From Eledone cirrhosa (taxonomy: Eukaryota), in NCBI GenBank assembly GCA_964016885.1, contig OZ024740.1, positions 113,088,001-113,152,000 of the forward strand: a DNA stretch of 64,000 bases, read 5' to 3'. Below are positions 7,211 to 61,430 of this stretch, piece by piece (the stretch's first letter is position 1; each line of letters starts with the position of its first letter). The translations under genes and the position numbers were made by a program. The notes below the pieces were generated by a model, which saw only the letters and a list, made by a program, of their open reading frames with translations, searched no databases and was not told the DNA's origin.

Positions 7211-7224
7211 ACTGTGTCTAATCT

Positions 7225-13869: not shown

Positions 13870-13901
13870 ACCTTTCCTCTCTCTATTTTTAACTTGCCAA
13901 C

Positions 13902-16900
13902 ATGGCCGTATTAAGAGTAGGATGTTTAAATGTTCGAGGCCTGGGATCGTCCTGGAAGCAGGGTCACCTGCTCAACGACCTCAGGTCTCTAGAAATGGAT
14001 GTAATTGCCGTCAGTGAGACCAGGATTTCCGACACGCGTGCACCAGCCCCCATTTTCGACGACTATCAGATCTTTGCATCTGTTAGCCGGCCGGGAATGG
14101 GAGGAAGGCTGGCAGTGCTGTTTAGGAAAGGCCTGGATCTCGAGGAAAGGTCGATCTTCCGGGACCCCGACGGGAAGTTGGTGGTCTTGGACGTGAACCA
14201 TAACGAAGGTGGTGTCTTTAGACTGGTGGCCATCTATGCTCCAACTGGGGCAGGACGACCGGACTTCTTTAGACGCCTGGAAGCCTTTCTGGGTACGTCT
14301 CGCCCTTTACTGTTAGCGGGGGACTGGAACGGCATCATAGACGCGCGCTGGGACTGTGTGGGAGTATCCGATAGGAGCGGAGGCTGCACAAGCCTCAAGA
14401 ACCTGATCAGCCAGTTCCAACTGTCTGACAGGTACCGACTAGATTTCCCTAACGCGCCAGTGTGGACCTGGACTAACCGCATAGGGTCATCTAGATCGTA
14501 TATAGACAGGATATTCATTAGGAAAATAGACAGAAATAGTGTAAGCTGTCCACGTTTTGAAACGGTCGCCTATTCAGATCACAAGTTTAGGACTGTATGG
14601 GCGACCTAGATAAGACGCGTAGGTTAGGACCTGGTTACTGGAAGCTAAACATGTCATTTCCGGCACGTAAGGCTTACAGGGACCAGGTCAACAATTTAGT
14701 TAAGAAAAAGTTGACAGGGGGAGTCGTCAACAATAGATGGTGGGGGGCTCTCAAAAGAGAGATTAGAGTAATATGGATAGAGTTTAGCAAAGAAGTAGCG
14801 TTAGAGAAAAATAGAAAGGAGGGGGAGTTGTTAGATAAGTTAGACGAGGCTATTGGTAGTGGCATTGCAACTGACCTGCTAGCGGCGAGAATGGCATTAG
14901 ACCATTTCTTCAATGCGAAACACGAAGGTTGCATTGTCAGAGCTAAGGCGCGTGCTCTGAGAAACGAGGGAACCAAAGCTGTTCGATGGGCCCGCATGGC
15001 GGAGGCGCAAGTCACCCGGTTTGGATGGTCTGCCCTACGAGCTTTACGTAAATATGCCAGACTTGTTCTCCAATCTCCTCGAAGCCCTCTACTGCAACTG
15101 GCAGCAAAACCGGAGTATTCCCAGTTCTGTGAGGCGGGCGTAGTGACGCTGATAAGGAAAGACGAGAACAAGAGGGACACATTAGACAATTTTAGGCCCA
15201 TAACACAGAGTTTAAGATTTTGGCCAGGGTGTTAGCGAAGAGGTTGGCGCTTGTCGTCGGGGATTTGGTTGGGGAGGCGCAAACTTGTGCAATCCCAACC
15301 AGGTCCATACACGACAACCTCCACCTAATGCGATACATCATAGAGAGGGTAGTGTGTAAACCTGGCTTCGGTGGGGCTCTGATCAATTTAGATCAATCGA
15401 AAGCATTCGATAGCGTCGACCATCGGAACCTGGATGCTGTCCTCAAGGCGGCTTGCTTCGGCCCCGTCTTCAGAAGCTGGATCACTGAAATGCACAGCGG
15501 CACCTGCTCGATGGTCAAAATTAATGGCCACCTCTCGGAACCGTTTCAGGTCTCCCGATTGGTCCGTCAAGGGTGCCCTCTCTCCTCCATTCTGTACGTA
15601 TTGACTCTCGAGCCTTTACTGCGGAAGCTGGAGCTCTTGCAGGGCATCCCGCTCGAACCGGGGCGCGTAAAGGCTGTGTCGGCTTATGCGGACGACATCA
15701 CCGTGATGGTGTCGGACACCTCAGAAATAGAGGTGGTCGGCAACTTATTGGAGGAATATGAAAGGTTCACTGGAGCAAAATGTAACCCGGAAAAGTCGAT
15801 GGGCTTGCAACTAGGCACCTGGAGAAGCTAGTCCATGCCGTCCAACAGCGTCGTTAGGCGCTGGACGGACGGACCGGTAAAGTTTCTAGGGGTTTGGTTC
15901 GGGCCAGACCTCAAGGTGGATAAGAATTGGGACGAGGTGACGGGCAGAGTAGTCAGTCTCACCCAGAAATGGGCTGGGAGGAAGCTATCACTGAAAGGTC
16001 GGGCGGAGGTGGCGAACGCGTACATCGCGTCCGTCATCTACTACCGTCTGACTGTCGTCCCTTGCCACCGTTCGCGCCTCGCCATCTTGGAGCGGCTCCT
16101 CTTCAAATTCTTGTGGAGGGGTCAGGTTCCGCTGGTGAGGCGGTCCATCTGCTGCCAGCACCCTCTACGTGGAGGGCTGGGCATGCCGTGGCTAATGATG
16201 CGTAGTCACGCGCTGAGGCTGCAGCATCTCCAGATATTCTGCCTAAACGGTGAACAGATGTGGTCGCCGTTTGTCAGACGGGCCTTTCCGCAGCTGGTTT
16301 CTTTGACTTAGCTGCAGTCCTGAGTCAAGAAGAGACCGAGACTGGGTGACTGGCATCTGGAATGTTGCCATGCACTCACTTCCCTCTACCAGGCGGGCAA
16401 TGCGGTCTGTGGAACTTCAACTCTCGAGTTCTATAGAGGATTAGTGGTGGGGTAGTGCGACGACGCACTCGGGGAGGCTCTGGGAGTCAACGAAGTCGAA
16501 CTAACTAGTCTGTACTGGAGGACTTTCGAGCCGGACGATGGATAATTTCCAAAAATCCCTCGCGTGGCAGTGCTACCGGGGGGCACTGCCGGTTCGAGAT
16601 AAACTCTACAGGCACGGAAGTGCTGTCAGACGGACCTGCCCGAGATGCGCGCAGAGCGACGAAACCGTTCTGCACGCACTCGTCCAGTGTCCGTGCATTA
16701 CTGACTTGTGGAGCTATGTTGAACAGCTGTTGTCGCGTGTAGAACGGATCCGGCTATCGGCCGAGTCCATATTGAAGATCGACCTGCCGCCTTCTTTTGG
16801 CCAGGAAGGGCAGGCAATTTTCCTCTGTCTGGTGGCAGTAGCGAAAGAGGTTGTATGGTGGACGAGGTTGAAAGGACTGAAGACAGACACTTTTCTCTTC

Positions 16901-17053
16901 GGCCAATCCCTCATTAACTTTTTCAAGTTTCACTTGGAAAAGAAGGTGGGGGTGGAGAGAGAAGTGTTGCCCTCCAGTACATTTGCTGAAAGGTGCGTGA
17001 ATGTGGGGAGAATGGCCTGTGTGAGTGGGCCTACTCTGGTCATGCGGCTGTAG
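13902..17053 (+). pseudogene. LINE ORF2: APE endonuclease + reverse transcriptase + C-terminal Cys/His motif (Tx1/L1 type), disrupted
   Basis: LNVRGL, VSETR, IYAP, AGDWN, SYIDR, SDH, GYWKLN, LDQSKAFD, VRQGCPLS, AYADD, FLGV, GGLG, CPRC..ETVLHALVQC; frameshifts, stops and an internal deletion near 15010. Confidence 0.92.
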
Positions 17054-27409: not shown

Positions 27410-28626
27410 TTGTCCCCGTCAATACCTCACCAAGATGGAACACATGCTCTTCCAGTTCCTTTGGAAGGAGCTGGCTCCACTGGTTAGGAGATCTGTCTGC
27501 TGTCAGCACCCTTCCAACAGAGGGCTGGGATTGCCGTGGCTGATGATGCGCGAACACGCACTGAGGCTACGGCATCTCCAGGTATTCCGCAGCAAACAAC
27601 TGGTGTGGGCCCGGTTTGTGAGACAGTCCTTCCGCAACTTCTCTCGCTGACGGATCTGCAGTCCTGGTCAAGCGGAGACCGAAGAAAATGGGCGCCTGGC
27701 ACATTGAATGCGCTCAGGCGTTCACAGTCCTCTTTCAGACGGGCACAGCAATCAGTGGAGACTCCACTTCGACATTCTATAGAGGGTTAGTACGTTACAA
27801 GTGCGGCGACGTGCTCAGGGAGACTCTAGGCGTCGAAGACGACGAGCTCACAAGTCTGTTCGGTAGGACTTTCCGCCCGGGACCCATGGATAACTTCCAG
27901 AGGTCCCTGGCAATGCTACCGAGGAGCTCTACCAGTTCGAGACAAGATCTACAGGTACAGACGCCCCGGCAGGGATCCTTCAAAGAGGACGTGTCCAAGA
28001 TGCGAGCAGGACATTAAAACCGTCTTGCACGCAATTGTACACTGCCCGGGCGTAACCGACCTGTGGAGCTACGCAGAACAACTGCTGTCACGTATGGGAC
28101 AAATCCAGTTGACTGCCGAGTCCATAGTAAGGATCAAACCGCCAACTTCTTTCAAAAACGAAAGAGAGGCGGTTTTCCTCTATATAGTGGTTATGGTAAA
28201 AGAGATTATATGGTGGACGAGATTGACAGGACTGAGGACAGATGCCTTTCTCTCCGGACAACAACTCATTCCCTTCTTTAGGTACCACTTTAGAAGGAGA
28301 ATCAGAGTGGAGAGAGAGGCACTGCACCCCAGTAAATTTACTGAAAGGTGGGTGAATGTAGCAAAAATGGCCCGAGTGATTGGGCCTTCTCTGTATATAA
28401 ACCTGTAGGTTGAAGATGAGAGTAAAAGGAAGAAAGGAGCACTTGCACAACACGCTCCTGGAGTTGAGGGATGTTCTATCTACGGGGTATTAAACAACCC
28501 ATTTGTAACGCCTCGATTGTTGAATTTGTTTGTTTAAACATTTTTTTTACACGATTCCATGTAAAATCCCGGCATATGTCCTTGTATTGTCCCCATTTCT
28601 TGTGCGCCCTTGTGGCAGATAAAGAA

Positions 28627-34065: not shown

Positions 34066-34650
34066 TGAGAAAGAGACAGGGATAGACAGACAGATATATA
34101 GACAGATAAGGAAGGACTCAAAGATAATGAGAGACTGAAGAGACAAAGGGAGATAGAGGCAGACAGAGGCATGGAAGAGAAGAGGAGAAGTAGGAGTAAG
34201 ATATGCAGGAAGAGTAGGAGTAGGTGGAGGAGTGGTTGGGGGCGTATGCTTCTTGTATATTATGACGGCTGTTGGTACCATAAAGAATATTGATGGGTTT
34301 TGATTATCCAAGAGCTGAAAGAAAGCAAATGGAGGAAAGAAAGCAAAGGGACAATGTGTCTAGAAATAGGAATCAGAAAGTATTATAGATCGAAGAATCT
34401 GTCGAATGTAATATATAGGAAGAGCTGCAACGAGTGAATACATGCGTAAAGGCAGACGACCAATTATTATCTGAGAATGCATCTAACGACACATGTAACT
34501 ATGACGAAAGTGCCAGCGTATGAATGATCAAACCATACTATTATAGTACACTACACACTCAAACATATATATCTCCTTCACCCCCCTCTCTCTCTTCGTC
34601 TCTCTCGCCAGATATACCTACATCCCCCCCCCCACACACACACTCTCTCT

Positions 34651-34685
<35 letters not shown>

Positions 34686-34689
<4 letters not shown>

Positions 34690-35549
34690 GAAAAAGTTTG
34701 TCCTTCATCAGTGGCCTTCCAACCGTCGTAGGCATTTCATCGCTTTAAAGGCCATATACCTCAGGTTGGTGCGAGCAACGGCTAAAAAAAGTCGTTGGGA
34801 CACGTAAATAAAGGGGACGCCAGGGTAAACAAACAAAATGGTTTAAGCAACAGAAAGTGATGAAGAAGAAAGAAACAAGTCCCAGATTTCTATGAATATA
34901 AATTCGGTGGAATTGTGAACGAGAGAATAAAGACCATCAAACCTGGTTGAAATGTGAGCAAGGAAGGAATTTCGCACAGATCTAACGGGAGGAAGAAGGA
35001 AGAAGGGGTCTGGTCTGCGAATTCGGTAAACATAAGTTCTGTGAAGTCGCAGACGAGAAAGAGAGAGAGAAAAAAATTCATACCGGCTTGGGCAAGAGGG
35101 CGCGAGAAAAGGATTACGGACAGGTCAAACGGGAAGAAAGAGGAGGAGGAGAGGTAGTGACAGAGAATGAGTGAGTGAAAGGTGAGGAAGAGGCTAACAG
35201 AGAGAGAGAGACTGCTAGAAAGGGTAAAGATACCAAGAACGAAACAGACGGGTAGCAGCAGAGGAAAAAATATGTGTAAATATGATAATAATGTAGCTGC
35301 GGCGTTGCAAATGGGTTACATATGAAAAAGTTTGTCCTTCATCAGTGGCCTTCCAACCGTCGTAGGCATTTCATCGCATTAAAGGCCATATACCTCAGGT
35401 TGGTGCGAGCAACGGCTAAAAAAAGTCGTTGGGACACGTAAATAAAGGGGACGCTAGGGTAAACAAACAAAATGGTTTAAGCAACAGAAAGTGATGAAGA
35501 AGAAAGAAACAAGTCCCAGATTTCTATGAATATAAATTCGGTGGAATCG

Positions 35550-35553
<4 letters not shown>
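34686..35553. mobile_element. Non-coding element with 234-bp terminal direct repeats, inserted in (TA)n
   Basis: 34686-34919 and 35320-35553 are near-identical (period 634 bp); a diverged inverted copy lies at ~61237-61430. Confidence 0.7.
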
Positions 35554-35612
<59 letters not shown>

Positions 35613-35689
35613 ACACGCCCCCACACATATATATATGTACATATTTATATATATATATGTGTGTGTGTATGTGTGTGTGTGTGTGTGTG

Positions 35690-35905
<216 letters not shown>

Positions 35906-35941
35906 TGTGTGCATGTAGCAATTTTTATACTAAACTTTATA

Positions 35942-35970
<29 letters not shown>

Positions 35971-35978
<8 letters not shown>

Positions 35979-37037
35979 CGTAAGATAAGAAAATTATAAA
36001 ATTATAAAAAAATTATAAAATTGACTTACTTACTAAAATATCACTTCTAACTAATTAGTTTCTGGAATGGAGTAAATATATTTTCCGAAGAACATATTGA
36101 AAAGCATTCCGTCGTCAGGAAAGTCTATTTTCGTGTAAGTTACCAGGCATAGCGAGGACTCTGGAAACTTATTAATAAGTTTCCAGAGTCCTCGCTATGC
36201 CTGGTAACTTACACGAAAATAGACTTTCCCGACGACGGAATGCTTTTCAATATGTTCTTCGGAAAATATATTTACTCCATTCCAGAAACTAATTAGTTGG
36301 AAGTGATATTTTAGTAAGTAAGTCAATTTTATAATTTTTTTATAATTTTATAATTTTCTTAGCTTACGTCTCTCATATTATTGTTCTGCAACCCCATGCA
36401 TTGAACCACAATGTTACTAAGACAAAACCTATATATTTGCTAGCATTGATATGCATCTGTATGTATATAAATGTTACTAGATATAAATTCTTTATAATTA
36501 TCTCCAATTCATTTGTCGAGCAATATTGGCCATGACTGCTGCTATAGTAGTGGGCAGGCCACTGTCTTATTAACAACACGCTTTCCACTGATTGACCTCG
36601 ATGTCACGTGATTGATTCTTTTTGAATTTGCCACAGACGTAGAGGCAGTGATTTTCTCAATGGCTATGATTTCAGTCCACGCTTCGCTATTTCCTTTCCA
36701 CTGAATTATTTTTTTTAATAAGTTTCAAGAGTCCTCGCTATGCCTGGTAACTTACACGAAAATAGACTTTCCTGACGACGGAATGCTTTTCAATATGTTC
36801 TTCGGAAAATATATTTACTCCATTCCAGAAACTAATTAGTTGGAAGTGATATTTTAGTAAGTAAGTCAATTTTATAATTTTTTTATAATTTTATAATTTT
36901 CTTATCTTACGTCTCTCATATTATTGTTCTGCAACCCCATGCATTGAACCACAATGTTACTAAGACAAAACCTATATATTTGCTAGCAATGATATGCATC
37001 TGTATGTATATAAATGTTACTAGATATAAATTCTTTA
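35971..37037 (+). mobile_element. Non-autonomous Penelope-type/retrozyme-like element A: inverted pLTR + two direct pLTRs
   Basis: ~200-bp-arm palindrome centred at 36173/36174; 36174-36494 is repeated at ~36716-37037; three hammerhead copies; (TA)n flanks. Confidence 0.8.
36766..36847 (+). ncRNA. Type I minimal hammerhead ribozyme (element A, intact copy)
   Basis: Stem I ACTTTC/GGAAGT; CTGACGA 36772-36778; stem II GGAATG/CATTCC; GAAA 36828-36831; perfect palindrome ACTAATTAGT as stem III; GUU site after 36841. Confidence 0.75.
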
Positions 37038-37055
37038 TATATATATATATATATA

Positions 37056-37347
37056 TGTATTGAAATTTCCGTTGAAAACAGAAAAGGTCATAGAAGTGAA
37101 GAGTGCTCTATGTAAGTATCAGAGCAAAATTTAATGTATAAAAATCAATACAATATAATTACCTCATTACCAGAGGTTTCCCGAATGAGGCGAATTTTTT
37201 TTTTTTTTTTTTTGATGAGACTTTCCAAGTATTTACCCATGTTTTATATTGCCTCGTCTGACGAACGAATGAAGACGTTTCTTTCGTATTCGCCTCATTC
37301 GGGAAACCTCTGGTAATGAGGTAATTATATTGTATTGATTTTTATAC

Positions 37348-37352
<5 letters not shown>
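37056..37352. mobile_element. Fold-back element C (Penelope pLTR-derived)
   Basis: Inverted arms ~37132-37197 / 37288-37352, unpaired tail on the left, (TA)n flanks. Confidence 0.75.
37248..37325 (+). ncRNA. Type I hammerhead ribozyme (element C)
   Basis: 10-bp stem I ATTGCCTCGT/ATGAGGTAAT; CTGACGA 37258-37264; stem II CGAATGA/TCATTCG; GAAA 37303-37306; stem III ACC-TCT-GGT; GUA site after 37315. Confidence 0.8.
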
Positions 37353-37415
<63 letters not shown>

Positions 37416-37418
<3 letters not shown>

Positions 37419-37910
37419 GATATTAATAAATGGAAACTATATTTATAAAACCATATTTATTTCATTATACATATTTCAGGGATACCACATTAAATTATGG
37501 TATGCCTTCATCAGACAAAATACAATATATAACAGTTTTACAAATAGGTTTGACGTACCCTTTAAAATACAGCCAATATTTTTGGAGGCTGTCTGGATAG
37601 TGATTTGTTCATATAATCATTATATGAACAAATCACTATCCAGACAGTCTCCAAAAATAATGGCTGTATTTTAAAGGGTACGTCAAACCTATTTGTAAAA
37701 CTGTTATATATTGTATTTTGTCTGATGAAGGCATACCATAATTTAATGTGGTATCCCTGAAATATGTATAATGAAATAAATATGGTTTTATAAATATAGT
37801 TTCCATTTATTAATATCGTATATCTACTCCAAAAATTTGTCGAGTGCTTTATATCAGTTATAAAAATATTTACTTGTTGTATCCCAACAATTTTAAATAG
37901 AACTTTTGCA
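37416..37910 (+). mobile_element. Fold-back element B (200-bp arms, 1-nt loop) plus 3' tail
   Basis: Palindrome centred at 37618 (37418 pairs with 37818); unpaired tail 37824-37910; (TA)n flanks. Confidence 0.85.
37714..37778 (+). ncRNA. Type I minimal hammerhead ribozyme (element B; mirror copy on minus strand at 37458-37522)
   Basis: Stem I TATTTTGT/ATGAAATA; CTGATGA 37722-37728; stem II AGG-C-ATACCATA/TGTGGTAT-C-CCT; GAAA 37759-37762; self-complementary ATATGTAT; AUA site after 37770. Confidence 0.75.
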
Positions 37911-37921
37911 TATATATATAT

Positions 37922-38080
37922 ATAAACTTTAATATAGAAATGGCTTCTACATGATTTCTTTTGAATGAAACAATTCTCATCCTGTAGAAGCCATTTCTAT
38001 ATTAAACTTTATGTTTACACTCTACTAATGTATTGAGTACCTTACTAACTATGGTTATTCCCGATTAAACTTCTGACTCA
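37922..38080 (+). mobile_element. Short fold-back element with tail
   Basis: 30-bp arms 37922-37951 / 37983-38012, then a tail with an ACTC..GAGTAC stem. Confidence 0.65.
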
Positions 38081-38107
38081 CACAAACACACACACATATA
38101 TATATAT

Positions 38108-38317
38108 ATCCCTCTGTGGTTGAAGGTTGAGATGAAAGAGTACACAACACGAAGCAGAGTTTTAATATTCATGTTATTAAGGTTAAATAATGAGTCTTGT
38201 TTTTCTGGTGTTTCGAATGTTTATGACAGAGTCAGCACATAATCTGATGACCCTGTAATAAACAGGCGAAACGCCAGAGTAACAAGACCCACTATTTAGC
38301 CTTAATAAAATGAATAC
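38108..38317. mobile_element. Fold-back element D with hammerhead core lacking the 5' strand of stem I
   Basis: Diverged inverted arms ~38165-38234 / 38248-38316; CTGATGA 38244-38250, stem II CCTGT/ACAGG, GAAA 38268-38271. Confidence 0.65.
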
Positions 38318-38361
38318 ACACACACACACAGACACTTATATGTATAAATGTATGTATGTAC

Positions 38362-39301
38362 TAAAATATATATATATATATAGTTTTGCGAGGTTTTTTA
38401 ATATGAAATCGTGTGTCGAAACAAATATTGTTATACTTGTGTTGGGTCATATTTGTGTAATAATATTGCCAGAATTAATAACAGAATATACTCACTGTTT
38501 GATTGGTTTTCGCTTCTGTGTCGGTTAATTTAATTTATTCGGTCCTCAATGTTACCATTGACTGACCAACGGTCAAAAATACAGATACAATATATAGTCT
38601 AACAAAGTTCTTTCGTTGCACATCTGCAACATCGTCAGTGGTGCTATTATGTTTCCTCCCGTTGCATTGTATGCATACGACATCTTTATTTAGTCTGTTT
38701 ATTTATAGGCAAATCAGAGAGGCCAGCGAAATAGAACTTAGAAGGCCAAGGCGAAACAGAAAAAATGAATGGAATAACAACACCCAAACAAACAACACTG
38801 ACCTAAGAGAAGTATAAATAAATAAATAAATAAATACATACACAAGCACAATAACAACAAACACATATAAACACACACTAGTAAACTAAGATAGAATACA
38901 ATAACCAATACACAGTCACCCAAACACGAACACACATCAAACAAAACACTATACACACACGCAAACGCATGCGCAGAGAAGACACAAAAATAAACAAAAT
39001 AAATAAATAAACAGACTAAATAAAGATGGCGTACGCATACAATGCAACGGGAGGAAACATAATAGCACCACTGACGATGTTGCAGATGTGCAATGAAAGA
39101 ACTTTGTTAGACTATATATATATGTGTTTGTGTCTATATTGTATCTGTATTTTTGACCGGTGGTCAGTCAATGGTAACATTGAGGACCGAATAAATTAAA
39201 TTAACCGATATAAAGGACACAGAAGCGAAAACCAACCAAACAGTGAGTGTGTTCTGTTATTCTGGCAATATTATTACACAAATATGACCCTCCCCAAGTA
39301 T

Positions 39302-39310
<9 letters not shown>
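38362..39310. mobile_element. Fold-back element E (~290-bp arms around a ~290-bp spacer) with hammerhead-like cores
   Basis: Arms ~38424-38706 / 38998-39310; CTGACGA 39071-39077, stem II GTTGCA/TGCAAY, GAAA 39095-39098; stem I imperfect. Confidence 0.75.
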
Positions 39311-39344
<34 letters not shown>

Positions 39345-39595
39345 AGTACAGAATAAGCAAAACTATGTTCAAAACATTTTATTGCTGACAATCGTTTCTT
39401 CCAAACTTTCGGCTGATATAATCGGAGCACTAGCAAAGTTTAGACATATAATTAACCTTCTATTCCACAGAACAATCGTATAAATACATAGATGTTAGTG
39501 TTGTCATTAACAGTGTCATATTTAAAGTATAAATTATATTATTATTGTTATTAACTGCTCCATACTGTTGAGCTAACATACATAACATTACCAGT

Positions 39596-42150
39596 ATGCT
39601 GATCAAAGATTATCTTCCTATGTCTACTAAGAACATCCCAATACCATCTAGGGATACGTACGAAAAATTATTGATTATTAGTGTCAACTCATTTATCAAT
39701 AGAGTGAGATGGAGGACATTCCATTACGATAGAAACCGAACAGACAAAACAGGGATGGAATCAATTTCGACTCATACGGGGTTAAAACTTTTAAAACCCC
39801 ACTTTATTAAACTCTTTCGAAAATGATTTAATAAAACTAGTTAAGAACATAAGGTACAGAAAACATCCTAATAGAAATAACACCTTCTTAAACAACCTTA
39901 ACTCCACTATTAAAAGATTTAATAAAAATAAGAAAATTCTAATACATGCTGATAAAACTAATAATATATATATAGCCTAGATTACGAAACATCTAGAAAA
40001 TTTATATATAAAGAACTGCATAGGAGCTATAAGAAAACCACTATTAGAAACCTATAAGATATAAATATAGAAGGCCATAGTATAGTATGTAAATTAGAAC
40101 TTCAGAGATATACACAGCGATGCACCCCTAACCCCCCAAGATTCTCTCTGAAAGACCATAATGAAGACTTTAATAGTAACCCATTTATAAAACTAATTTG
40201 CCCTTCCAAATCTGACATTGGAATTATCAGCAAAAAATATTAGACAGAATCGTCTCCCAATTTAAGCATAAAATATATCCTAACCTGTGGGGAAATACTG
40301 GTGAAGTTATTGAATGGTTCAATGATATTAATGAGAATAAAAATAAAAAAATTATATAATTTGATATTAATTCGTACTACACCTCTATTTCTCCTATCCT
40401 ATTAAACAAGGCATTAATTATGGCTATGAACAATAGTCACCTTACTAGATCCCAAATTGATGTCATCCTTGCGACCCGTAAAACCATAATTGTATTTGAA
40501 GATCAATTATGGACCCGCAAAGATACACCTAACAACTTTGACATAACTATGGGATCTAGTGACACGGCGCAAGTCACTGATTTGTTGGTTCTATATCTCT
40601 TAAATGAAATTTATAAGAATCTGCCCTATCTCAATGGTGGTTTATACCGCGATGATGCACTACTACTTATTGACTATAAAAAATAATATAGAAAGAACTA
40701 GGAAACAATTGCATAACATATTTAAAAACTTCAACTTAAGTATTACCTTAGATAAAAACACTAAAAACGTTAACTTCCTTGGTGCTACCCTTTGCGTGGA
40801 CTCTAAAATATATACACCTTTTCATAAACCAAACGAAAAACTACTTTATGTAGATACCAAATCTACCCCCCCCCCCCTAAATCTATATTAAACTCAATTA
40901 CTAAAGGAATATCAAATGGAATTTCTACTCTATCATATAATTGTTTCTACTTTTGACACAAAGCCAGTACATTACTCGTACTTTATTTTATCGACCCCGT
41001 GAGGATGAAAGGCAAATTTAACTTCGGCGGGATGACACTATATTTAAAAGTAAATCCCAATACTATAATGAGTCCTTAGCTCGATCAAGCCATAAAAATA
41101 AAATTAGATTTTTACCTATAATATTCACTTAGTTACAACATTATTTCTCACAATATGGACCTGAATAAAAGTAATAAAAGTACTAGCCACTCTAACTCTA
41201 GTACGAAGGGTAATATCAAACTTAACTCGCACCAAAATAAACACTCCAATAATAATATAAACAGCAATATAAACAATACCTCAAATAACATTACAAAAAA
41301 CAAAAATAGAAGAACTAATACATTTTTCAATCCGCCTTTTAATCTAAACGTCTCTACCAACTTGCCTAAGGCTTTCTTCTCAATCTTAGAAAAACACTTC
41401 TCAGTCGGCCACAAATACCATAATCTTATCAATAAAAATACCATTAAAATCTCTTACTCTATCACACCTAACATCGCGTACCATATAGCTATTAATAATA
41501 AAAGGAAGATTAATAATTATTTCCAACTAATTAAATCGCAACAGAGGGTGAACTTACATAACAACATAGTACCAGAGAATTCTAGTAGCAATAATAATAA
41601 TAGTAATAGCACTAATCAAATTAATAACAATGGGAATGGTAATCATCATTACCCTAATGCTATCCCTAACAACCATGCATCTACACACCCTACTAACCAG
41701 CAAATAAACAACCAAAATAACTGTAACTGTAGAACAAATAGAACTTTCCCCTTAGGACAAAATTGCGTAATCAAAGACATTATTTACTCATGCACATTCA
41801 ATACAAACAACAGTTCAAAAACATATATCGGTTCAACTACGAACTGCTTCAAGACCAGATATAACTCGCATCTCCAAACTTTCAAAAATCGCAATCTAGT
41901 CAACTCCACTTCTTTATCTAACTACATACACTCTCTGAAAACTAAGAATAGACCATATACACTTCAATGGGAAGTAATACAAAGGGCCGCATCGTATAAA
42001 CCACCGAATAAATTATGTAACCTCTGTCTTGTAGAGACTCGCACTATAATCTATTCTAAGCTAAACCTTTTAAATAGAAAATCAGAAATGTTTTCCATGT
42101 TCCAACACTATCACCGACACTCTTTCCACAACTTCAAACCTAGCTGTTAG
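39596..42150 (+). pseudogene. Penelope-like reverse transcriptase + GIY-YIG endonuclease, disrupted
   Basis: STKNIPIP, RVRWR, HADKTNN, FDINSYY, ITMGS, GGLYRDD, VNFLG, FFNPPF, CNCR..PL..NC linker, IIYSC..TYIGST..FKTRYNSH, CNLCLVE..LLNRKSE. The CxC linker and C-terminal CxxC resemble Hydra-type PLEs (tentative). Frameshifts and a SINE insertion. Confidence 0.88.
40937..41032 (-). mobile_element. SINE fragment nested in the Penelope ORF
   Basis: ATAATTGTTTCTACTTTTG...TCGACCCCGTGAGGATGAAAGGCAAATTTAACTTCGGCGGGAT. Confidence 0.85.
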
Positions 42151-43222
42151 TATATAATATTGTCAGATCTGGATTCATCACCACCATTAACACTTTACCT
42201 CTGGGTTTTATCAGCATATAATTACCCCCACAGCATCACATTCTATGATCAGCTCATTCCTCTACTTACCTCCTATTTATCTACAATAACTATTGGGAAT
42301 AAACATAAAGTTACCACCATTTAATATAACTACAATAACTTCCTTACTAATATTTTATTCATTTAATTAATATATGGGTAGGTAGTGATAAAATGAGACC
42401 TTTAAGATTGTATTTAAAATTAAATATATATATTTAAAAACAAATAGCATTATATAAAAGAATTCGTTATAACAATATATTGTATATTAAATAAAATTTA
42501 AATAATTGGAGTTGTAAACAACTATACATTTTGCTCTTATATACAAATTAATCGCCAATTACCTCCCCTTTCACATTAGCTTCCCTTAGTATAGATCTCT
42601 AATCACTTCCTGAAATTAAACCGTTAGACAGATCACTCCAGATCAACTTGAACCCTTGATAAGATTGTAATAGGACCACTATACAATCCATAGTTGTAGC
42701 AACTAATAAACATTTACTAAAATATAACCAATGTAATGGAAAGGAAAACCTTAATATTAATACTCACAACACATGCACATTTGAACATTACCGGAACAAT
42801 TATCACATTGCATCCACCATAAACTTCATAGAAACTGCTTTTCATACCCACGCACCTCTGTCTACTTAATATGCTTTTATACCTGCATTGTATTATGTGA
42901 TACATTTGCCATATTGTGATATATATGTTTAGTACCATTGCTTGTTTCTTACCTGGTTATTCTGTACATGCCTAATACCTCTGCACTCTTTCTATACGTT
43001 TGTATATGTACCGCTAATGTCCTCATTTTGCGAGTAACTTTCTTCTTTAATTCCTCTATAATTGTTGTATTATTCTTTTATAATCTTTGTCGCATCCACT
43101 GATACTGACCACATCATCTTCACTCTTTAAATATGACACTGTTAATGACAACACTAACATCTATGTATCTTTATGATTGTTCTGTGGAATAGGAGGTTAA
43201 TTATATGTCTAAACTTTGCTAG

Positions 43223-43269
43223 TGCTCCGATGGATCCAAACGAAAGCTTGGAAGAAACGATTGTCAGCA
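43223..43269 (+). ncRNA. Degenerate hammerhead ribozyme in the Penelope 3' pLTR
   Basis: TGCT/AGCA stem I, mutated core CCGATGG, stem II TCCAA/TTGGA, GAAA 43254-43257, ACGATTGT stem III, GUC site. Confidence 0.55.
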
Positions 43270-43496
43270 ATAACATGTTTTGAACATAGTTTTGATTATT
43301 CTGTAATTTATTTCCGGCTCTGTAAAACATCTGATGTATTTATATTGAGGTATTTTTCTTACTGGTAATAAGGTGGTAATGAATTACTGACCTTGCTTGT
43401 TTATAATTATATATAGTGTATATATAAGTATAAATAATATTATTATTATTATATATATATATATAGAAATGATAACACACACGAGAGAGAGAGAAA

Positions 43497-44653: not shown

Positions 44654-45360
44654 ATGATATTGGAAAGCCAATATATATATACGTGTATGTGTGTGTGTCT
44701 ATGTACGTGTATATATATATATGTGTTTGTGTGTGTGGGTGTCTGTGGCCTATATACACTGGTTACAGACACACACACACACATACATCCTGTCCTAACA
44801 CAAGTTATAAGATACATATAACTTAATATTCAGTCACCAAATTCAAGCTAGATACAATAATGCTGTATTCGATTCTTTGAAGTCACCTGTCATAATTTCA
44901 TTCAACAAAACCACCAGCTTTCTCTCTCTCACAATCACTATCGGCGTTTGAATTCACATTCCAATGGTACCTTACTTTCAAAGAATTTTCCCATTATGTG
45001 CTGCTTTGGCTATTTATAAAGGTATCCGAAAAAAAACCGCGTATCTCGGGAACCCGCGGTCCGATTTACGCGAAACTTGTCTTTTCACTGTTTTATTCAC
45101 AAGTATTTTCACAAAGAAAATATCAAATCATTTTTCACTAATAGCTATGCAATTACTCCACTTCAAAATTCTTTTTTCTATATCTCTATTGATGCTTGAC
45201 TGTTTATTCTGAAAGATATTTCTGCTTAAAAAGTTGCAATGTTAATGAAAAGCTGGTTTTATTTACAAAATTTTGAAAGAAATTATTCTTACTTGTCTTA
45301 GCTTTTCCTTTTCCTTTCATTTTCTGACGTCGGAATCAACATTTTCTCATATTTACGCTG

Positions 45361-48300
45361 TTACAGTTTGTTCAAAAGAATGCTTTTGATGACAACATTC
45401 TTAGGTGACTGGGTATCCTTCAGAAACACTCTGACATTTTCTTTTCGTTTTCCGCAGCTAAGGGCTACATACAGTTGACCGTGTTGGAATACAGGTCGTT
45501 CCAGATAAACCAAGACGTTTTCCATAGTTTGTTCTTGTGCTTTATGAATAGTCATACGATTGAACTGGGAATTGGCTTCGCTGCAAAGGGATATCCCACC
45601 TTCGGATAGATTAATTCTTATTCTAGGTATCATAACGATCTCATTTCTGAAAGCAATAGTGTTGATTCTTGCTACTATGAGATTGTCGTGCAGTTCTTCC
45701 ACGATCACGCGCGTTCCATTACAGAGCCTTGGAGGATTCAAGTTTCTCATAAGAATTATTGGCGATCTTTTTTCAATTCCAGGTTATGTGGTGGAAGTCC
45801 TGATAGTTCAACCGAATCAAGGAATTCAGTCGGGAAATGAGTGGCATTGTCACCATCACTCACAGAATTATAGGATCGGTACTCTTTTATGGTTCCAGGG
45901 AAGCGTCTGATACAGGAGCAATTGATGCTTCTCATCATTTCATTGAGAGGTACTAAGATGCAATTGTTCGAAAACACTTCAGTTGGATTGTCGAATGAGG
46001 GGTAGATGAAATCAATACATTCTTCCATAGTTGTTGCTTGGAGAACGATTTATTTTTGCAAAATAATTTCCTCATTTTCAGTTTTTTTTATCTTATCTTC
46101 TCCAATATCCAATAGGAACTGTGCATAGTTTCCTGCTCCGCCACCCAATCGCATGTTTGTCTTCAATTGAAATCTTTTGAAGCTTCGCCATAAGTAGGAT
46201 TTTTTAATGCAGGCGTTTTCCACGTCCGCTTCATTTCCCCTTTTCATTAAGAAGCTGACGGAAATCGCCACAGCAAATTGTCAAAATTCCACCGAATCCC
46301 TCATTGGTGTCGCATATGTCATGCAGAGTGAGGTCAACAGCTTCGAAACTTTCCCTCCGAATCATAGGACACTCATCCCAAACAATCAGCCTTGTATGCT
46401 AGAAGAGGTTTGCCGTCGTTGAGTTTTTATCAATGTTGCACAGATCATTTTCTTTCACTACTATCGGTATTTTGAACGTAGAATGCGCTGTTCTTCCACC
46501 AGGCATCTGTGTTGTGGTAATGCCAGATGACGCAACAGCAATAGCCACGTCACCGTTTCCCCTGACTTTTGAAAGAATTAAGTTAATCAGGAATGTCTTT
46601 CCTGTTCCACCTGGAGCGTCAATGAAAATCAATGCAGATGTGTTCGTCTCTAAACTGTTACAAACGAAGTCGTACACGTGTTTTTGTTCACTATTCAATA
46701 GAGGTTCCGTCTCTTCTATAAATCGTCGCTGCTCTTCTCTGGTGTATTGCAATTATGCAATAACTCAAAATTGCCAATATCCTGATTAGTAACAATATTA
46801 TTTGGCCTTGGCAAGTTAAAGTCACTAAGACTTTTGCCCAGGTCGTTAAGTTTGTCTTCAAAATACAGAAGACATTGATCATAATGTCTCTCGTTAATCA
46901 AAAGTTTAGAGTTTCTGGTAGCCCTTTTTTCTATTTGAAGGTAATCCTCAGACAGCGAATGCTTAAATAGAGCCCATAAAGCACTGGAATTTTCAATTTC
47001 TGTATTTGTGAGGAGCACGATGAATAGGTCTCTCATGGCTTTGGGAAGCCTTGTTCGCTCAGCATCTTCCAGAGTCTGCTGCCAATGACCATCCGATTGA
47101 AGCAAACCTTTCTCTCTGCAGAGGTCTTTGAATAATTTCAGGAGTTCTCCATCACACATTTTCAAAGAGTTGAAGGATACTGGCCCTTTGAGGTGATGCA
47201 GAAGGAGTCTTAAATAACACAGGTCACCACTTCGTGGAGAAACAGTGTATACTCGTCCCAAAACGTTCGCCTCAAAAATCCCTGGATACTGCTCAACCTT
47301 TCTCCTTTCCCATCTCTTATTACTCCAAGTGTAAAACTTTGGGACATCGGCATAATACAATGTTTTTGCAAACGGATCGCGATCGCAAAGATCCATGAAC
47401 TCAGTCAGAGTCGTCTTAGCCATGTTATTGTTTACTTTAACAGCAGAATTGACCCGAAAGAAGATTTGATTTTCCTCAGGTAGATGAATTTGAAGGTGAC
47501 CTACGACCGGTTATCTCTCATGAATTGGAAATCCAAGTACCAAGGCAACAGCTTCTGAAGGACCGATATATCTTCCTGTTAAATACTGTATTATCTCATC
47601 TTCCCTGTTCACTCCAAACATTGCCTGATCACTGCCCTTCATGGTATATTTGATAACGTATTTGATCGATTTCACGGAAGAGCACATCTCTACGTTTAGG
47701 TGGCAGTTGAATAGTTTTAATAGTTTCATATTGTAGAGAACCACCCATTCCGAAGTTATATTTCGGCTTCCCCTTCCTTCTTGGTGACCCTCAAATCCTC
47801 CCATTCCTGGAGACCGTCTTCTGTACACAGGATAAGAGTCCTCTCCACACAATGTATATTCATTGAAAGGCTTAGGGTACCGCTTATTGCACATTCCATC
47901 TTTCCAACATGGCGAATTGTTAGAGCAATTCGGACCGTGAATCATGTGCTTCAGCACCAATTCATGACCCTCTGGATCTTTATTTGGATCTGGTATTTCG
48001 GCTTGAACAAATTTATCATATTCCTGCAGTCTGGGCTTGGAGGCTTCATTGAGCCATAGCAAACAGTGCACATGCGGAAGACCTCGCTTTTGATATTCGA
48101 CTGTCAGCACGTAAGCAATGCACTTGCCAAATAGGCCATCTACTCCAGTAAGATACTTTCTTAACAGTTTCCGCTTCAGGTCAAATACTCTGGCAATTAA
48201 ATCTAGCTTGTCATGTGGCTTCTGATTCAGGAATAGGTTTTGCCGGATTTCATTGTGATGAAGAACGAAGGATTGCCGTACTTCCGTATGTACATAATGG

Positions 48301-49820
48301 CATCCTGGCTTCGCTCCATCATATATCTCGGTCGACCGACAAATGTGGAAGAGAGTATGATTCGCCTGCCTATATTGCGATAATCGTCATCATCATTCAA
48401 TGCGTCAGTAAGGCCATTGTATGTTGTAGATCGCAATGATGTTTGATTCATTCGGATGTATTGCAGTCTATCTCCTTCAATCTTCGCATTCTCATGGTTC
48501 ATTATTCGATAGGATTAGTAGCGAATTGGCGTCAACTTCTTGTTGTTGCTCATTAACAGCTCATGATGCCATCCGTCATCGCCAAAAGGAAAACATAGAA
48601 CATACTGCAAACTGTCATAGGACCGATGGGACTCTGAGATTATTTGCAATTGTCCGCCTTTTTCTTTCAACACAATGTGCCGTGCTTTTGGTTGAAGTTC
48701 GGTGCTGTTTTGTATAATGACGGCAACTTCATTTGCAGTTTGTGCATTGAATCTTCTCTCATGTTCCTTTGCTGGTCTCCTACCAGGATCAATAATAGTC
48801 GAAACTTCGGGAATATTTTTAATTTGTTCTTTTGCCATTCGAAATGAAGCAACGTAAGGGTTATATTGTCTGAGTATTATTTCCAATAATTCAACTATGT
48901 CGCGCTGAATGCCATCGTTATGGAGTATCCTGATCCTCAAATCATCAGTATCCTGAGGATCCAAGAAGTAAATTTGAAGAAATGGGGGTTGTTCGTTGGG
49001 ATTAGGGTTTAAGGAACCGATGTAATGGTGAATTTGACATGAATAACGATAGAAGGATTCCATCCACTCATTGAGGACCGAACTTCTTCGGCACCAAAAG
49101 ATGCCATTTGGAACAGGCAGTTGTATTGTCTGAGGTTCTTTCTGAACTCGTTTGCCCTAGGTTGATCAGTACTAAATAAACTGTGAAGTTCCTGGGGGTA
49201 AAGGCTGCAGATTCCCCAACCTGACTTTTCCATTCATACAGCAAAAGTTAGCAGTTTCACCATGAATAAGCATTGCATGACAACAGACACATCTTATTCA
49301 TCTTTCCAACATCAGCAGAAAGGACACGTCGTTGAACTGTCCTTGCTCTATCCCTAATGGTTTGTTGGCAAAGACGTTCAGTTCTCCGAGCGTCCGATTC
49401 ATAATTTCTCCTGCTTCTGTCTCTTTCCCTCTGTTCCGCCAGACGCGCAGCTCTCCGACTATCCGATTCATGATCTCTCCTGCTTCTGTCTCTTTCCCTC
49501 TGTTCCGCCAGACGCTCAGCTCTCTGACCATCAGATTCATGATTTCTCCTTCTTCTGTCTCTTTCCCTCTGTTCCGCCAGACGCTCAGCTCTCCGACCAT
49601 CCGATTCATGATCTCTCCTGCTTCTGTCTCTTTCCCTCTGTTCCGCCAGACGCGCAGCCCTTGCTTTATCAGTCTCATCGATCCGTCTATTCGTATGCCT
49701 GTCCCGATCTTGTTGGCGTTGACCACTATCTTGCTCACTTTCTTCGGCTCTCCTTAGCCGTTCTTTCTATCCACTATCGATAGACCAACCAGATGTTTTC
49801 TTTCTTCCTCGTCGGGGCAT
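45361..49820 (-). pseudogene. Helitron RepHel: STPR-like repeats, Zn finger, HUH/Y2 Rep and Pif1-type helicase, frameshifted
   Basis: MPRRGRK start; GKMNKMCLCCHA..ETANFCCMNGKV; VEYQKRGLPHVH; KYVIKYTMKG; FIDAPGGTGKTF; GGRTAHSTFKIP; RNLNPPRLCNGTR; MTIHKAQ; HGQLYVALS. Confidence 0.93.
49372..49660 (-). repeat. 69-bp coding tandem repeat (~4 units; 23-aa STPR-like)
   Basis: Period 69 (49411 vs 49480); the frame continuous with the Zn finger reads ETDKARAARLAEQRERDRSRRDH / ESDGRRAERLAEQRERDR.. Confidence 0.8.
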
Positions 49821-52015: not shown

Positions 52016-52198
52016 AAAAAGTGTATACACCATTCTAATATATATATTGCCTGTACAGGTAATCAAAGTGTATATACATTTTTCGGGGAAACCATATATA
52101 TATATATATATACCTGGGTCCTGAAAAATGTATACACCATTCTAATATATATATTGCCTGTACAGGTGATCAAAGTGTGTATACATTTTTCCGGGACA

Positions 52199-52241
<43 letters not shown>

Positions 52242-52966
52242 GGTGTCCCTAAAACTGTATACACCATTCTAATATATATATTGCCTGTACAGGTAATCAA
52301 AGTGTGTATACATTTTATGGGGACACCATATATATATATATCTGGGTCCTGAAAAATGTATACGCCATTCTAATATATATATATTGGTTGTATAGGTAAT
52401 CAAAGTGTGTATACATTTTTCCGGGTCACCATATATATATAAATATATATATATACCGGTGTCCCTAAAACGGTATACACCATTCTAATATATATATTGC
52501 CTGTACAGGTAATCAAAGTGTGTATACATTTTTCGGGGACACCATATATATATATATACCGGTTTCCCTAAAATATATATACACCATTCTAATATATATA
52601 TTGCCCGTACAGGTAATCAAAGTGTGTATACATTTTTAGGGGACACCATATATATATATATATATATATATATATCGGGGTCCCTAAAAATGTATACACC
52701 ATTCTAATATATATATATTGCCTGTACAGGTAATCAAAGTGTGTATACATTTTTCGGGGAAACCATATATATATATACCTGGGTCCCTAAAAATGTATAC
52801 ACCATTCTAATATATATATTGCCTGTACAGGTAATCAAAGTGTGTATATGCTTTTCCGGGACACCAAATATATATATATACCGGTGTTCCTAAAAATGTA
52901 TACACCATTCTAATATATATATTGCTTGTACAGGTAATCAAAGTGTGCATACATTTTTCGGGGACA

Positions 52967-53041
<75 letters not shown>

Positions 53042-53125
53042 GGGGTCCCTAAATATGTATACACCATTCTAATATATATAGTGCCTGTACAGGTAATCAA
53101 AGTGTGTATACATTTTTCGGGGACA

Positions 53126-53174
<49 letters not shown>

Positions 53175-53778
53175 GGGGTCCCTAAAAGTGTATACAGCAT
53201 TTTAATATATATATTGTCTGTACAGGTAATCAAAGTGTGTATACATTTTTCGGGGACACCATATATTTATATATATATATACCGGGGTCCCTAAAAATGT
53301 ATACATCATTCTAATATATATATTGCCTGTACAGGTAATCAAAGTGTGTATACATTTTTCGGGGACACCATATATTTATATATATATACCGGGGTCCCTA
53401 AAAATGTATACATCATTCTAATATATATATTGCCTGTACAGGTAATCAAAGTGAGTATACATTTTTCGGAGAAACCATATATATATATACCGGGGTCCCT
53501 AAAAATGTATACACCATTCTAATATATATATTGCCTGTACAGGTAATCAAAGTGAGTATACATTTTTCGGAGAAACGATATATATATATACCTGGGTCCT
53601 GAAAAATGTATACACCATTCTAATATATATATTCGTTGTACAGGTAATCAGAGTGTGTATACATTTTTCCGGGACACCATATATATATATACCGGTGTCC
53701 CTAAAAATGTATACACCATTCTAATATATATATATGGCATGTACAGGTAATCAAATTGTGTATCATTTTTCGGGGAGA

Positions 53779-53821
<43 letters not shown>

Positions 53822-54748
53822 CAGGGTCCCTAAACATGTATACACCATTCTAATATATATATTGCCTGTACAGATAATCAAAGTGTGTATACATTTTTCG
53901 GGGACACCATATATATATATATATATACCGGGGTCCCTAAAAATGCATACACCATTCTAATATATATATTGCCTGTACAGGTAATCAAAGTGTGTATACG
54001 TTTTTCCGGGACACCATATATATATATATATACCGGTGTCCCTAAAAATGTATACACCACTCTAATATATATATTGCCTGTACAGTTAATCAAAGTGTGT
54101 ATACATTTTTCGGGGACACCATATATATATATATATACCGGGGTCCCTAAAAATGTATACACCATTTTAAGATATATATTGCCTGTACAGGTAATCAAAG
54201 TGTGTATACATTTTTCGGGGACACCATATATTTATATATATATACCGGGGTCCCTAAAAATGTATACATCATTCTAATATATATATTGCCTGTACAGGTA
54301 ATCAAAGTGTGTATACATTTTTCGGGGACACCATATATATATACCGGGGTCCCTAAAAATGTATACACCATTCTAATATATATAGTGCCTGTACAGGTAA
54401 TCAAAGTGTGTATACTTTTTTCGGGGAAACCATATATATATATATATATATATGGGTCCTGAAAAATGTATACGCCATTCTAATATATATATTGTCTGTA
54501 CAGGTAATCAAAGTGTGTATACATTTTTCGGGGACACCATATATTTATATATATATACCGGGGTCCCTAAAAATGTATACATCATTCTAATATATATATT
54601 GCCTGTACAAATAATCAAAGTGTGTATACATTTTTCGGGGACACCATATTTATATATATACCGGGGTCCTTAAAAATGTATACACCATTCTAATATATAT
54701 ATATTGTCTGTACAGGTAATCAAAGTGTGTATACATTTTTCGGGGACA

Positions 54749-54791
<43 letters not shown>

Positions 54792-55079
54792 GGGGTCCCT
54801 AAAAATGTATAGATCATTCTAATATATATATTGCCTGTACAGGTAATCAAAGTGTGTATACATTTTTCGGGGAAACCATATATATATATACCTGGGTCCT
54901 GATAAATGTATACACCATTCTAATATATATATTGCCTGTACAGGTAATCAAAGTGTGTATACGTTTTTCCGGGACACCATATATATATATATACCGGGGG
55001 TCCCTAAAATGTATACACCATTCTAATATATATATTGCCTGCACAGATAATCAAAGTGTGTATACATTTTTCGGGGACA

Positions 55080-55124
<45 letters not shown>

Positions 55125-55313
55125 GGGGTCCCTAAAAATGTATACACCATTCTAATATATATATTGCCTGTACAGGTAATCAAAGTGTGTATACGTTTCT
55201 CCGGGACACCATATATATATATATACCGGTGTCCCTAAAAATGTATACAGCATTCTAATATATATATTGCCTTTACAGGTAATCAAAGTGTGTATACATT
55301 TTTCGGGGACACC

Positions 55314-55344
<31 letters not shown>

Positions 55345-55655
55345 CCGGGGTCTCTAAAAATGTATACACCATTCTAATATATTTATTGCCTGTACATATA
55401 ATGAAAGTGTGTATACATTTTTCGGGGACAACATATATATATATATATATATACCGGGGTCCCTCAAAATGTATACACCATTCTAATATATATATTGCCT
55501 GTACAGGTAATCAAAGTGTGTATACATTTTTCCGGGACACCATATATATATATATATATACCGGGGTCCCTAAAAATGTATACACCATTTTAATATATAT
55601 ATTGCCTGTAGAGGTAATCAAAGTGTGTATACATTTTTGGGGAGACAACCTGTAT
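52016..55655. repeat. Tandem array of ~33 Tc1/mariner-type MITE units separated by variable (TA)n
   Basis: Unit ~88 bp: CCGGGGTCCCTAAAAATGTATACAC...GTGTATACATTTTTCGGGGACACCA, imperfect TIRs, TA-flanked. Confidence 0.88.
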
Positions 55656-55669
55656 ATACACAAATATGA

Positions 55670-55699
<30 letters not shown>

Positions 55700-55700
<1 letters not shown>

Positions 55701-56350
55701 CATAGGAGGTCAAATCCTATGTGGGTATGGCGGAGGGCCGATTTAAGGAACGCTTCCTGAACCACCAGTCGACCTTTAGGTACCCGGAAAGACGTTCCAC
55801 CACGAAACTTGCGAGCCACGTATGGTCCCTCAAGGACTCAAGTATAGACTACTCCATTCAATGGAAAGCCATCACTAAGTCCAAGCCATACGCAAGGGAA
55901 AATCCGTCGTCTGGACTATGTATTGATGAACGAATAAATATTCTAAAGAGATTATGCAATAGTGATTGCCTAAACACGAGAAATTAATTCTTCACACGTT
56001 GTCCACATGTCTCGAAACACCTCTTACATAACTACAAATCCCCGGATTGAATCACAATAACATCCTAATTTTCTTATCAACTAGAAACTTTTCGGACTTT
56101 CGCAGTTATCTCCCTTACATCTCTCGCACGATTTTTATTATTGCCTCTGAAGTGACGGTTTCTGCGCATGCGCATTCGTACGGTTGTCGTTCCTGTTCCG
56201 TATAACCATGTACATTACGAGCTGAGGATCCGCTATGGTGAAATAATTGTTCTCGGTATGGTGAACTAACTGTTGTGTAACCATTTCTACCTAACTCGTC
56301 CCATGGACTGAGTGCTCTACCACCACAGATATTACCTTCCAGTGTTCTAC

Positions 56351-61239: not shown

Positions 61240-61424
61240 TTGTCCCCCTCGCTTTACGCGATTTACTGGTCCCAATAATTCTTTTTAGTTATTGCTCGCA
61301 CCAACCCGAAGTATCTGATTTGTAATGCGATGAAATACCAATGATGGTTGGAAAATCACTGACGAAGGACTATTTTTATCATATGTAACCTATGTGCAAC
61401 CACACAGTATTCTTCTTTCTTCTC

Positions 61425-61430
<6 letters not shown>
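61237..61430 (+). mobile_element. Diverged inverted copy of the 34686/35320 repeat family
   Basis: TTGCTCGCACCAACC..GCGATGAAAT..GGTTGGAA..CACTGACGAAGGAC..CATATGTAACC matches the reverse complement of 35300-35450. Confidence 0.7.

Follow-up and report, generated by a model that had tools for sequence, protein, structure and literature searches.

Organization of the insert

The window analysed here (the whole 64-kb stretch of DNA) contains a 1071-bp insert, bordered by (TA)n at both ends, in which an inverted 205-bp arm precedes two 323-bp repeats with a 220-bp spacer between them (Table 1). The initial annotation had described two direct repeats of ~320 bp around ~220 bp of non-coding sequence, and this is the arrangement we found. 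Its span of 36174..37037 placed the repeats and the spacer correctly; the true insert is larger, however, and extends from 35969 to 37039. The direct repeats are offset by 543 bp and carry 4 differences, and among the arms only 5 of the 323 offsets vary. The inverted arm meets copy 1 without a loop, with the centre at 36173/36174, and its 3' end corresponds to position 36378. The locus holds ~1.6 tandem copies of a 543-bp unit and a mirrored arm, all within a TA microsatellite. The GC content is 30% in the repeat, 40% in the spacer and about 34% in the 543-bp unit. No tRNA was found between 34.5 and 44 kb.

Table 1. Features of the insert and its immediate flanks (positions are those of the window)
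Feature	Position	Strand	Remark
(TA)n tract, left flank and insertion target	35938..35972	.	last 4 nt common with element end
Inverted arm, the repeat's first 205 nt	35969..36173	-	head-to-head with copy 1
Direct copy 1, pseudo-LTR, 323 bp	36174..36496	+	
Type I hammerhead motif 1	36223..36304	+	U4C at 36230; predicted cleavage after 36298
Predicted 543-nt cleavage-to-cleavage monomer	36299..36841	+	prediction only
Predicted hairpin before first recurrent 3' end (36378)	36314..36367	+	copy-2 equivalent z -2.79
Predicted hairpin before second recurrent 3' end (36496/37039)	36432..36485	+	copy-2 equivalent 36975-37028 z -2.48
Spacer, 220 bp, non-coding, part of the repeated family unit rather than unique host DNA	36497..36716	+	
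Segment predicted to pair across the circle's cleavage/ligation site, -15.6 kcal/mol	36579..36594	+	58/1000 shuffles equal
Direct copy 2, pseudo-LTR, 323 bp; reverse transcription probably starts at its 3' end	36717..37039	+	
Type I hammerhead motif 2	36766..36847	+	intact core, C-A stem II base, predicted cleavage after 36841
(TA)n tract, right flank	37036..37056	.	first 4 nt common with element end

The longest of the stop-to-stop frames (at least 35 aa) that overlap the spacer has 76 aa. Five of the 15 listed spacer-overlapping frames were scanned against Pfam, with no match at E<=1, and a minus-strand frame of 60 codons over the spacer showed neither Pfam nor PLE similarity. Comparison of the 543-bp unit with three PLE-type proteins gave no alignment above shuffles. 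By these frames, Pfam and PLE-protein comparisons, an ORF with RT and GIY-YIG parts between the pseudo-LTRs (pLTRs) is absent at the locus. The unit falls within the size and composition range of retrozymes (about 50-1000 bp, non-coding, GC below 50%).

Hammerhead motifs

A hammerhead had been proposed for each repeat, and type I motifs were found with cores at 36229 and 36772 on the plus strand and at 36118 on the minus strand. They have a stem I of 6 bp, a stem II of 6+8 bp, a stem III of 3 bp with an AAUU loop, and a GUU cleavage site; in copy 2, stem I is formed by 36766-71 and 36842-47, the core starts at 36772 and the GUU ends at 36841. Cleavage had been predicted after 36298 and 36841, 543 nt apart, and GUU trinucleotides end at both positions. 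Two sequence defects noted earlier were also recovered: the CCGACGA core of the 36229 copy represents a U4C change, and the first stem I pair of the inverted copy has an A for G at position 36048. The 36772 copy, previously called intact, does have an unaltered core (CTGACGA), but there is a C-A mismatch at the base of its stem II. According to excerpts of PMC3088659, U4C lowers the activity in vitro, yet can suffice in vivo.

A descriptor scan of 34.5-44 kb yielded five strict hammerhead motifs, whereas none was found in each of 200 dinucleotide shuffles, indicating that the motifs are beyond chance. Rfam gave no match at the gathering threshold in the 64-kb window; with E<=10, 78 matches were obtained between 34.5 and 44 kb, most of them from miRNA models that hit palindromes and microsatellites, and no hammerhead family was among them. 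Exact hammerhead motif scans of metagenome contigs, prokaryote genomes and viral contigs returned nothing.

The best predicted fold of the motif is 3 kcal/mol more stable than the active monomer fold, and the fold of the whole motif is no better than those of shuffles (z 0.01). Stem III had been described as a perfect palindrome, which holds for ACUAAUUAGU. The energies predicted for this palindrome, -9.0 kcal/mol for the self-duplex and +1.5 kcal/mol for the hairpin, would favour dimeric cleavage, and it is predicted to permit an intermolecular stem III of 10 bp. The hammerhead is thus predicted to be weak as a monomer and better as a dimer, in which form it would cut multimeric transcripts to unit length. 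Dimeric cleavage is described for newt and axolotl motifs in excerpts of PMC6155905 and PMC7229834. In the geometry of such a dimer, cleavage at site 1 would depend on the intact core 2, and the mutant core would not be part of the released monomer; both stem I strands lie within the predicted monomer, together with the copy-2 core, which is intact.

Recurrence of the unit in public contigs

Contigs of four public runs (X1, X4, X5 and X6, with organism labels A, B, A and C, respectively, i.e. three labels from two studies) were matched to the permuted unit 36330-36880 at 80% likeness. These are 4 of the 24 listed runs, the small-share runs X7-X20 and the RAD-seq runs X22-X24 being left out, and organism label A is not necessarily the species of the window. 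No RNA run appeared among those listed, which has no bearing on expression. The details given below come from the rows listed (32 out of 1751 for pieces, 24 out of 123 for loose ends and 40 out of 102 for variants), and contig depth is not equivalent to copy number. Matching contigs numbered 1610 in X1, 54 in X4, 40 in X5 and 28 in X6, and covered 29 of the 29 bins of the unit in each of the first three runs and 25 of 29 in X6, the spacer included.

One X5 contig of 587 nt (record 17) is collinear with the unit over 505 nt (36340-36845), with 31 differences and 1 gap (about 94%), and crosses both repeat-spacer junctions. The lowest-depth part of the spacer is bridged by X4 record 10 and by X1 records 3 and 4. 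A diverged form (X5 record 22) departs from the reference at 36523-36586 and, by length arithmetic, returns after about 70 letters, so that no ORF would fit within the gap. The recurrence of the 543-bp unit in ORF-less form, left as a check by the initial annotation, was therefore observed: in X1, X4 and X5, diverged contigs run collinearly through the spacer. The opposite case, in which other copies always continue into a PLE ORF, does not apply to the contigs listed. Since contigs span the spacer together with the repeat and share (TA)n ends, we conclude that the short unit is a family and not a one-off truncation. Arrays of at least two full units were seen neither at the locus nor in the matched contigs. 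Joints of the type '36870 to 36346 goes back' were considered as tandem arrays and rejected, as the cut in the reference falls within the direct repeat; all that such joints reveal is a variant shorter by 18 nt.

Within the hammerhead, none of the 40 of 102 variant rows listed falls on a core position, and two of them, 36766 A>T and the loss of one letter at 36844, weaken stem I. The variant at 36770 converts a U-G pair of stem I to C-G (13 contigs in X1, 3 in X4 and 2 in X6). Loose ends at 36798 represent a variant with a different stem II, and the X4 one carries a CTGATGA core.

The non-coding spacer could have other origins. If it were unique host DNA, either captured between pLTRs or parting two independent pLTR insertions, its higher GC content relative to the repeat would be accounted for, and excerpts of PMC3846280 describe PLE pLTRs flanking captured host DNA. 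However, many diverged contigs, from all four runs, fall on the spacer and a single contig is collinear through both of its junctions, and we give this origin hardly any credence; an ancient host capture in the ancestor of the family may have occurred. It is also improbable, though less strikingly so, that the locus represents a rare gutted copy, i.e. an autonomous PLE that lost its ORF by deletion near 36520-36576, the short form being a non-propagating by-product. Contig depth dips at 36520-36576, possibly where a longer parent has its ORF; the dip lies about 195 nt upstream of the core, a distance comparable to the 170-nt 3' UTR of a Hydra-like fragment at 55.7-56.3 kb; PLE derivatives with internal deletions are described in PMC3846280; and a 562-nt X5 contig (record 18) shares just 96 nt with the unit, its other 466 nt being unlike the unit and possibly part of an autonomous partner, of a distant subfamily or of host DNA. 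On the other hand, about 19 X1 contigs have variants inside the dip, compared with 11-13 just upstream of the hammerhead, and the bridging contigs, which come from two organism labels, show a divergence of 6-15%. Moreover, two short-form contigs make up 86 of about 92 depth units in the 3' half of the spacer in X5, the loose ends at 36582 and 36586 look by eye like diverged spacer and not like the end of an ORF, and neither Pfam nor the three PLE-type proteins revealed a protein remnant.

Taken together, we favour, with a probability of roughly three in four, the interpretation that the locus is a young insertion of a multi-copy, ORF-less 543-bp type I hammerhead unit, a non-autonomous PLE derivative of the 'non-LTR retrozyme' kind. 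The retrozyme reading of the initial annotation is upheld as regards the ORF-less collinear family and the PLE-type insertion anatomy, and it is these features that make PLE-driven mobility likely; the idea itself was not new, since animal retrozymes as non-autonomous PLE sequences are an already published kind.

Target, 3' ends and template

In X1, 12 contigs enter (TA)n at 36378; at 36496, 4 contigs of X1 and 1 of X6 do so. These two 3' ends of the family, which lie 80 and 198 nt past the ribozyme site and 118 nt apart, are both used by the insert described here. Each element end has 4 nt in common with (TA)n, a match that is weak alone, as 16 of the 198 positions in 36299-36496 begin such a 4-mer. 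The family-rare letters at 36412 and 36748 are common to the arms, which, given the small number of differing offsets, points to one template lineage copied recently. According to excerpts of two papers, a typical Penelope insert comprises two direct pLTRs and an adjacent inverted one (Arkhipova et al. 2013, PMC3846280; PMC8557442).

We propose that a PLE protein supplied in trans would copy the unit into a (TA)n tract. An RT/GIY-YIG protein of the Hydra clade would cut the (TA)n target, and reverse transcription would be primed at two internal RNA sites at the distances given above; both sites lie immediately 3' of a predicted hairpin and match (TA)n over 4 nt. The longer cDNA, of 1.6 units (866 nt), would pass two ribozyme sites, the shorter would yield the 205-nt arm, and the two would be joined head to head. 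Since the long cDNA crossed two ribozyme sites, its template would have been uncut or re-ligated at both, as in a tandem transcript or a circular monomer. A linear tandem transcript and a circular monomer fit the template data equally. Comparison of the unit with 11 other regions of the window revealed no autonomous partner, no alignment being above shuffles.

The 543-bp duplication would require no reverse transcription over more than one unit if it had arisen by local DNA duplication after insertion or by an assembly error. Fold-back and tandem structures are hard to assemble, and no read of the whole locus was seen; yet the three arms bear separate point differences, both outer ends are the family-wide 3' ends, and the layout is that of a standard PLE product, which leaves such an origin very improbable.

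This copy is probably not a source element, given the U4C change in its upstream core and the predicted masking of one hammerhead: in read-through RNA from upstream, the inverted arm is predicted to pair with one hammerhead copy over about 200 bp.

A circular monomer as a possible template

A full retrozyme cycle, in which dimeric hammerheads would cut multimers and a 543-nt circle would serve as template for 1.6 laps, is a special case of the preferred reading; we regard it as possible, with the odds against it. The predicted monomer has an intact core, the palindrome would permit the intermolecular stem III, and the private letters common to the arms would fit one circular template. The folding energy predicted for the circular monomer is -112.6 kcal/mol, compared with -99.0 for the minus strand, and 59 of 60 shuffles fold less well than the circle (z -2.9; 1 of 60 as good), but the share of paired bases, 60%, is close to the 57% of shuffles. 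In X5 record 17, position 36340 is joined to 36841 on the opposite strand, so that its inverted arm seems to begin at the predicted cleavage site, and its 82 leftover letters would end near 36379 (copy-1 numbering), the first 3' end of the family; we infer from the table rows of this one contig a second insertion of like layout with an inverted arm starting at the cleavage site. Retrozymes of mussel, coral and axolotl form circles according to excerpts of PMC7229834, but the present unit is longer than the 170-400 nt of tested invertebrate circles. The same DNA is also accounted for by a linear tandem template. In excerpts of PMC11167929, the PLE named PAc uses unprocessed RNA and no reads end at its cleavage site, and in those of 10.64898/2026.07.22.740005, 8 of 9 Xenopus retrozyme dimers were uncleaved in vitro.

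In the predicted circle, the active ribozyme fold lies 11 kcal/mol above the best fold, and the ribozyme would be blocked there. The antisense 'lock' at 36579-36594 is a borderline candidate and a lead only, given the share of shuffles that pair as well (Table 1). The spacer has two copies of a 10-nt motif, at 36581-36592 and 36694-36705, which opens like the 5' strand of hammerhead stem I; a common variant, 36580 G>A, would convert a G-U pair of the predicted blocking helix to A-U. A more elaborate version is unlikely in our estimation: an abundant circle of 525-543 nt would self-lock its ribozyme by an internal antisense segment and be inserted by a Hydra-clade PLE that primes twice, at two fixed, hairpin-marked sites, the cut would set some of the 5' ends of inverted arms, and the genome would be cephalopod-like. 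Viroids and plant retrozymes lock their ribozymes in this manner. Should the circular self-locking reading be true, it would provide genomic evidence of PLE hammerheads cleaving the retrotransposition template in vivo.

Relation to known elements

Like animal non-LTR retrozymes (Cervera & de la Pena 2020, PMC7229834; Li, Clavereau & Pollet 2026, 10.64898/2026.07.22.740005), the unit is free of ORFs, has a GC content below 50%, falls within the size range of 51-972 bp, bears one type I hammerhead per unit with a short stem III and a palindromic loop, is multi-copy and occurs together with PLEs in the same genome; the likeness is one of sequence. It differs from them in that the locus holds 1.6 units, one with a mutated core, where two complete units are called for, that the unit carries an inverted PLE arm, and that its long stem II has C-A at the base and its site is GUU. 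Animal non-LTR retrozymes have been linked to the pLTRs of PLEs, and one of nine dimers was cleaved (10.64898/2026.07.22.740005).

With the EN+ PLEs of the Hydra clade (Craig et al. 2021, PMC8557442) and the typical Penelope insert (PMC3846280) the insert shares partial tandem pLTRs, an adjoining inverted 5'-truncated copy, a hammerhead in the pLTR, a (TA)n target and two alternative 3' ends. Unlike those elements, the unit is without an RT-EN ORF, and its ends are 118 nt apart instead of forming a tail of 30-40 nt. Non-autonomous Chlamys PLEs such as MRC1 (PMC8557442) are likewise short, ORF-less derivatives with pLTRs and head-to-tail insertions, but they are green-algal, and most Chlamys elements are without hammerheads. 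PAc, a Poseidon element of Anolis (Frangieh et al. 2024, PMC11167929), resembles the unit in having two internal initiation sites downstream of the hammerhead and near a stem-loop, an AT-rich target and extension of both strands. It differs in being autonomous and in that its start sites have no homology to the cut DNA, whereas the ends of the unit match (TA)n by 4 nt. PAc is the one reconstituted PLE, and for it hammerhead cleavage was unneeded and unprocessed RNA was the main template (PMC11167929). Plant LTR retrozymes also have two hammerhead-bearing direct repeats around a non-coding middle and a similar size, but they are Gypsy-associated and characterized by type III hammerheads, true LTRs, PBS/PPT and 4-bp TSDs, whereas the unit is type I.

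Among the literature matches listed, no title or abstract opening named a cephalopod retrozyme; preprint supplements may hold similar families. Penelope expansions in cephalopods are named in PMC8967140, in passages that do not contain the word 'ribozyme'. The unit bears on the role of PLE hammerheads and on the mobilization of animal retrozymes by PLE proteins. The unit joins the size of a retrozyme to a complete PLE insertion signature, i.e. inverted arm, fixed 3' ends and (TA)n target, and with many copies, the positions of arm starts relative to the cleavage site genome-wide could tell whether cut RNA or circles are the templates. Beyond this template question, the 543-bp unit is a matter of ordinary transposon annotation.

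PLE-type sequences and other repeats in the window

Two decayed Hydra-like ORFs resembling proteins of 705-815 aa are present in the window, at 39623-42144 and 55706-56038. A DKT motif and a decayed CxC linker are present in the former and a C-terminal endonuclease part in both, features that match the description of the Hydra clade in excerpts of PMC8557442, where Hydra elements are also said to bear hammerheads and insert into (TA)n. The ORF at 55706-56038 is followed by about 170 nt, a hammerhead that has the AAUU loop and GUU site of the 543-bp unit, about 94 nt and (TA)n. Pfam names none of the PLE-like proteins, so that the clade assignment rests on motifs, and neither remnant aligns with the 543-bp unit above shuffles. 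Judged by target, layout and motif type only, a Hydra-clade PLE was probably the mobilizer.

The first ORF belongs to a decayed Hydra-like PLE at 39572-43311, with RT and GIY-YIG-type parts, frameshifts, stops and an Asn-rich linker, and is enclosed by inverted 187-bp repeats (39341-39527 and 43125-43311). The second is part of a 5'-truncated endonuclease fragment at 55706-56345 that lies between (TA)n tracts and includes a 3' UTR and, at 56222, a small hammerhead of type I. About eight PLE-type tandem or fold-back inserts are chained with (TA)n between them in 34600-43400, forming a local hot spot. This chain includes 37922-38012, 38425-39309 and, at about 38160-38310, decayed hammerhead-like arms read by eye. 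A head-to-head palindrome of a different family, with 208-bp arms, lies beside (TA)n at 37410-37826 and carries intact-looking hammerheads at 37514 (-) and 37722 (+), and an imperfect palindrome at 37129-37354, ending near (TA)n, has a hammerhead at 37258 with a stem II of 7 bp and a stem I of 6 bp. The partial tandem at 34683-35553, between (TA)n tracts, consists of 237-bp direct repeats 634 bp apart and contains a minus-strand CTGATGA half core with no downstream GAAA match; it is possibly a second non-autonomous PLE family, and a 76-79% relative was found at 61261-61430.

The repeats of the window suggest an octopus-like host. Elsewhere in the window, minus-strand ORF fragments at 44900-49800 resemble a Helitron Rep/helicase, and the decayed ORFs at 1129-2745, 13893-17053 and 27447-28408, with endonuclease and RT-like sequence, are presumably of the LINE type. 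A long short-period minisatellite occupies 5769-7252, and at 52017-55700 (TA)n alternates with an array whose period is about 100-115 bp.
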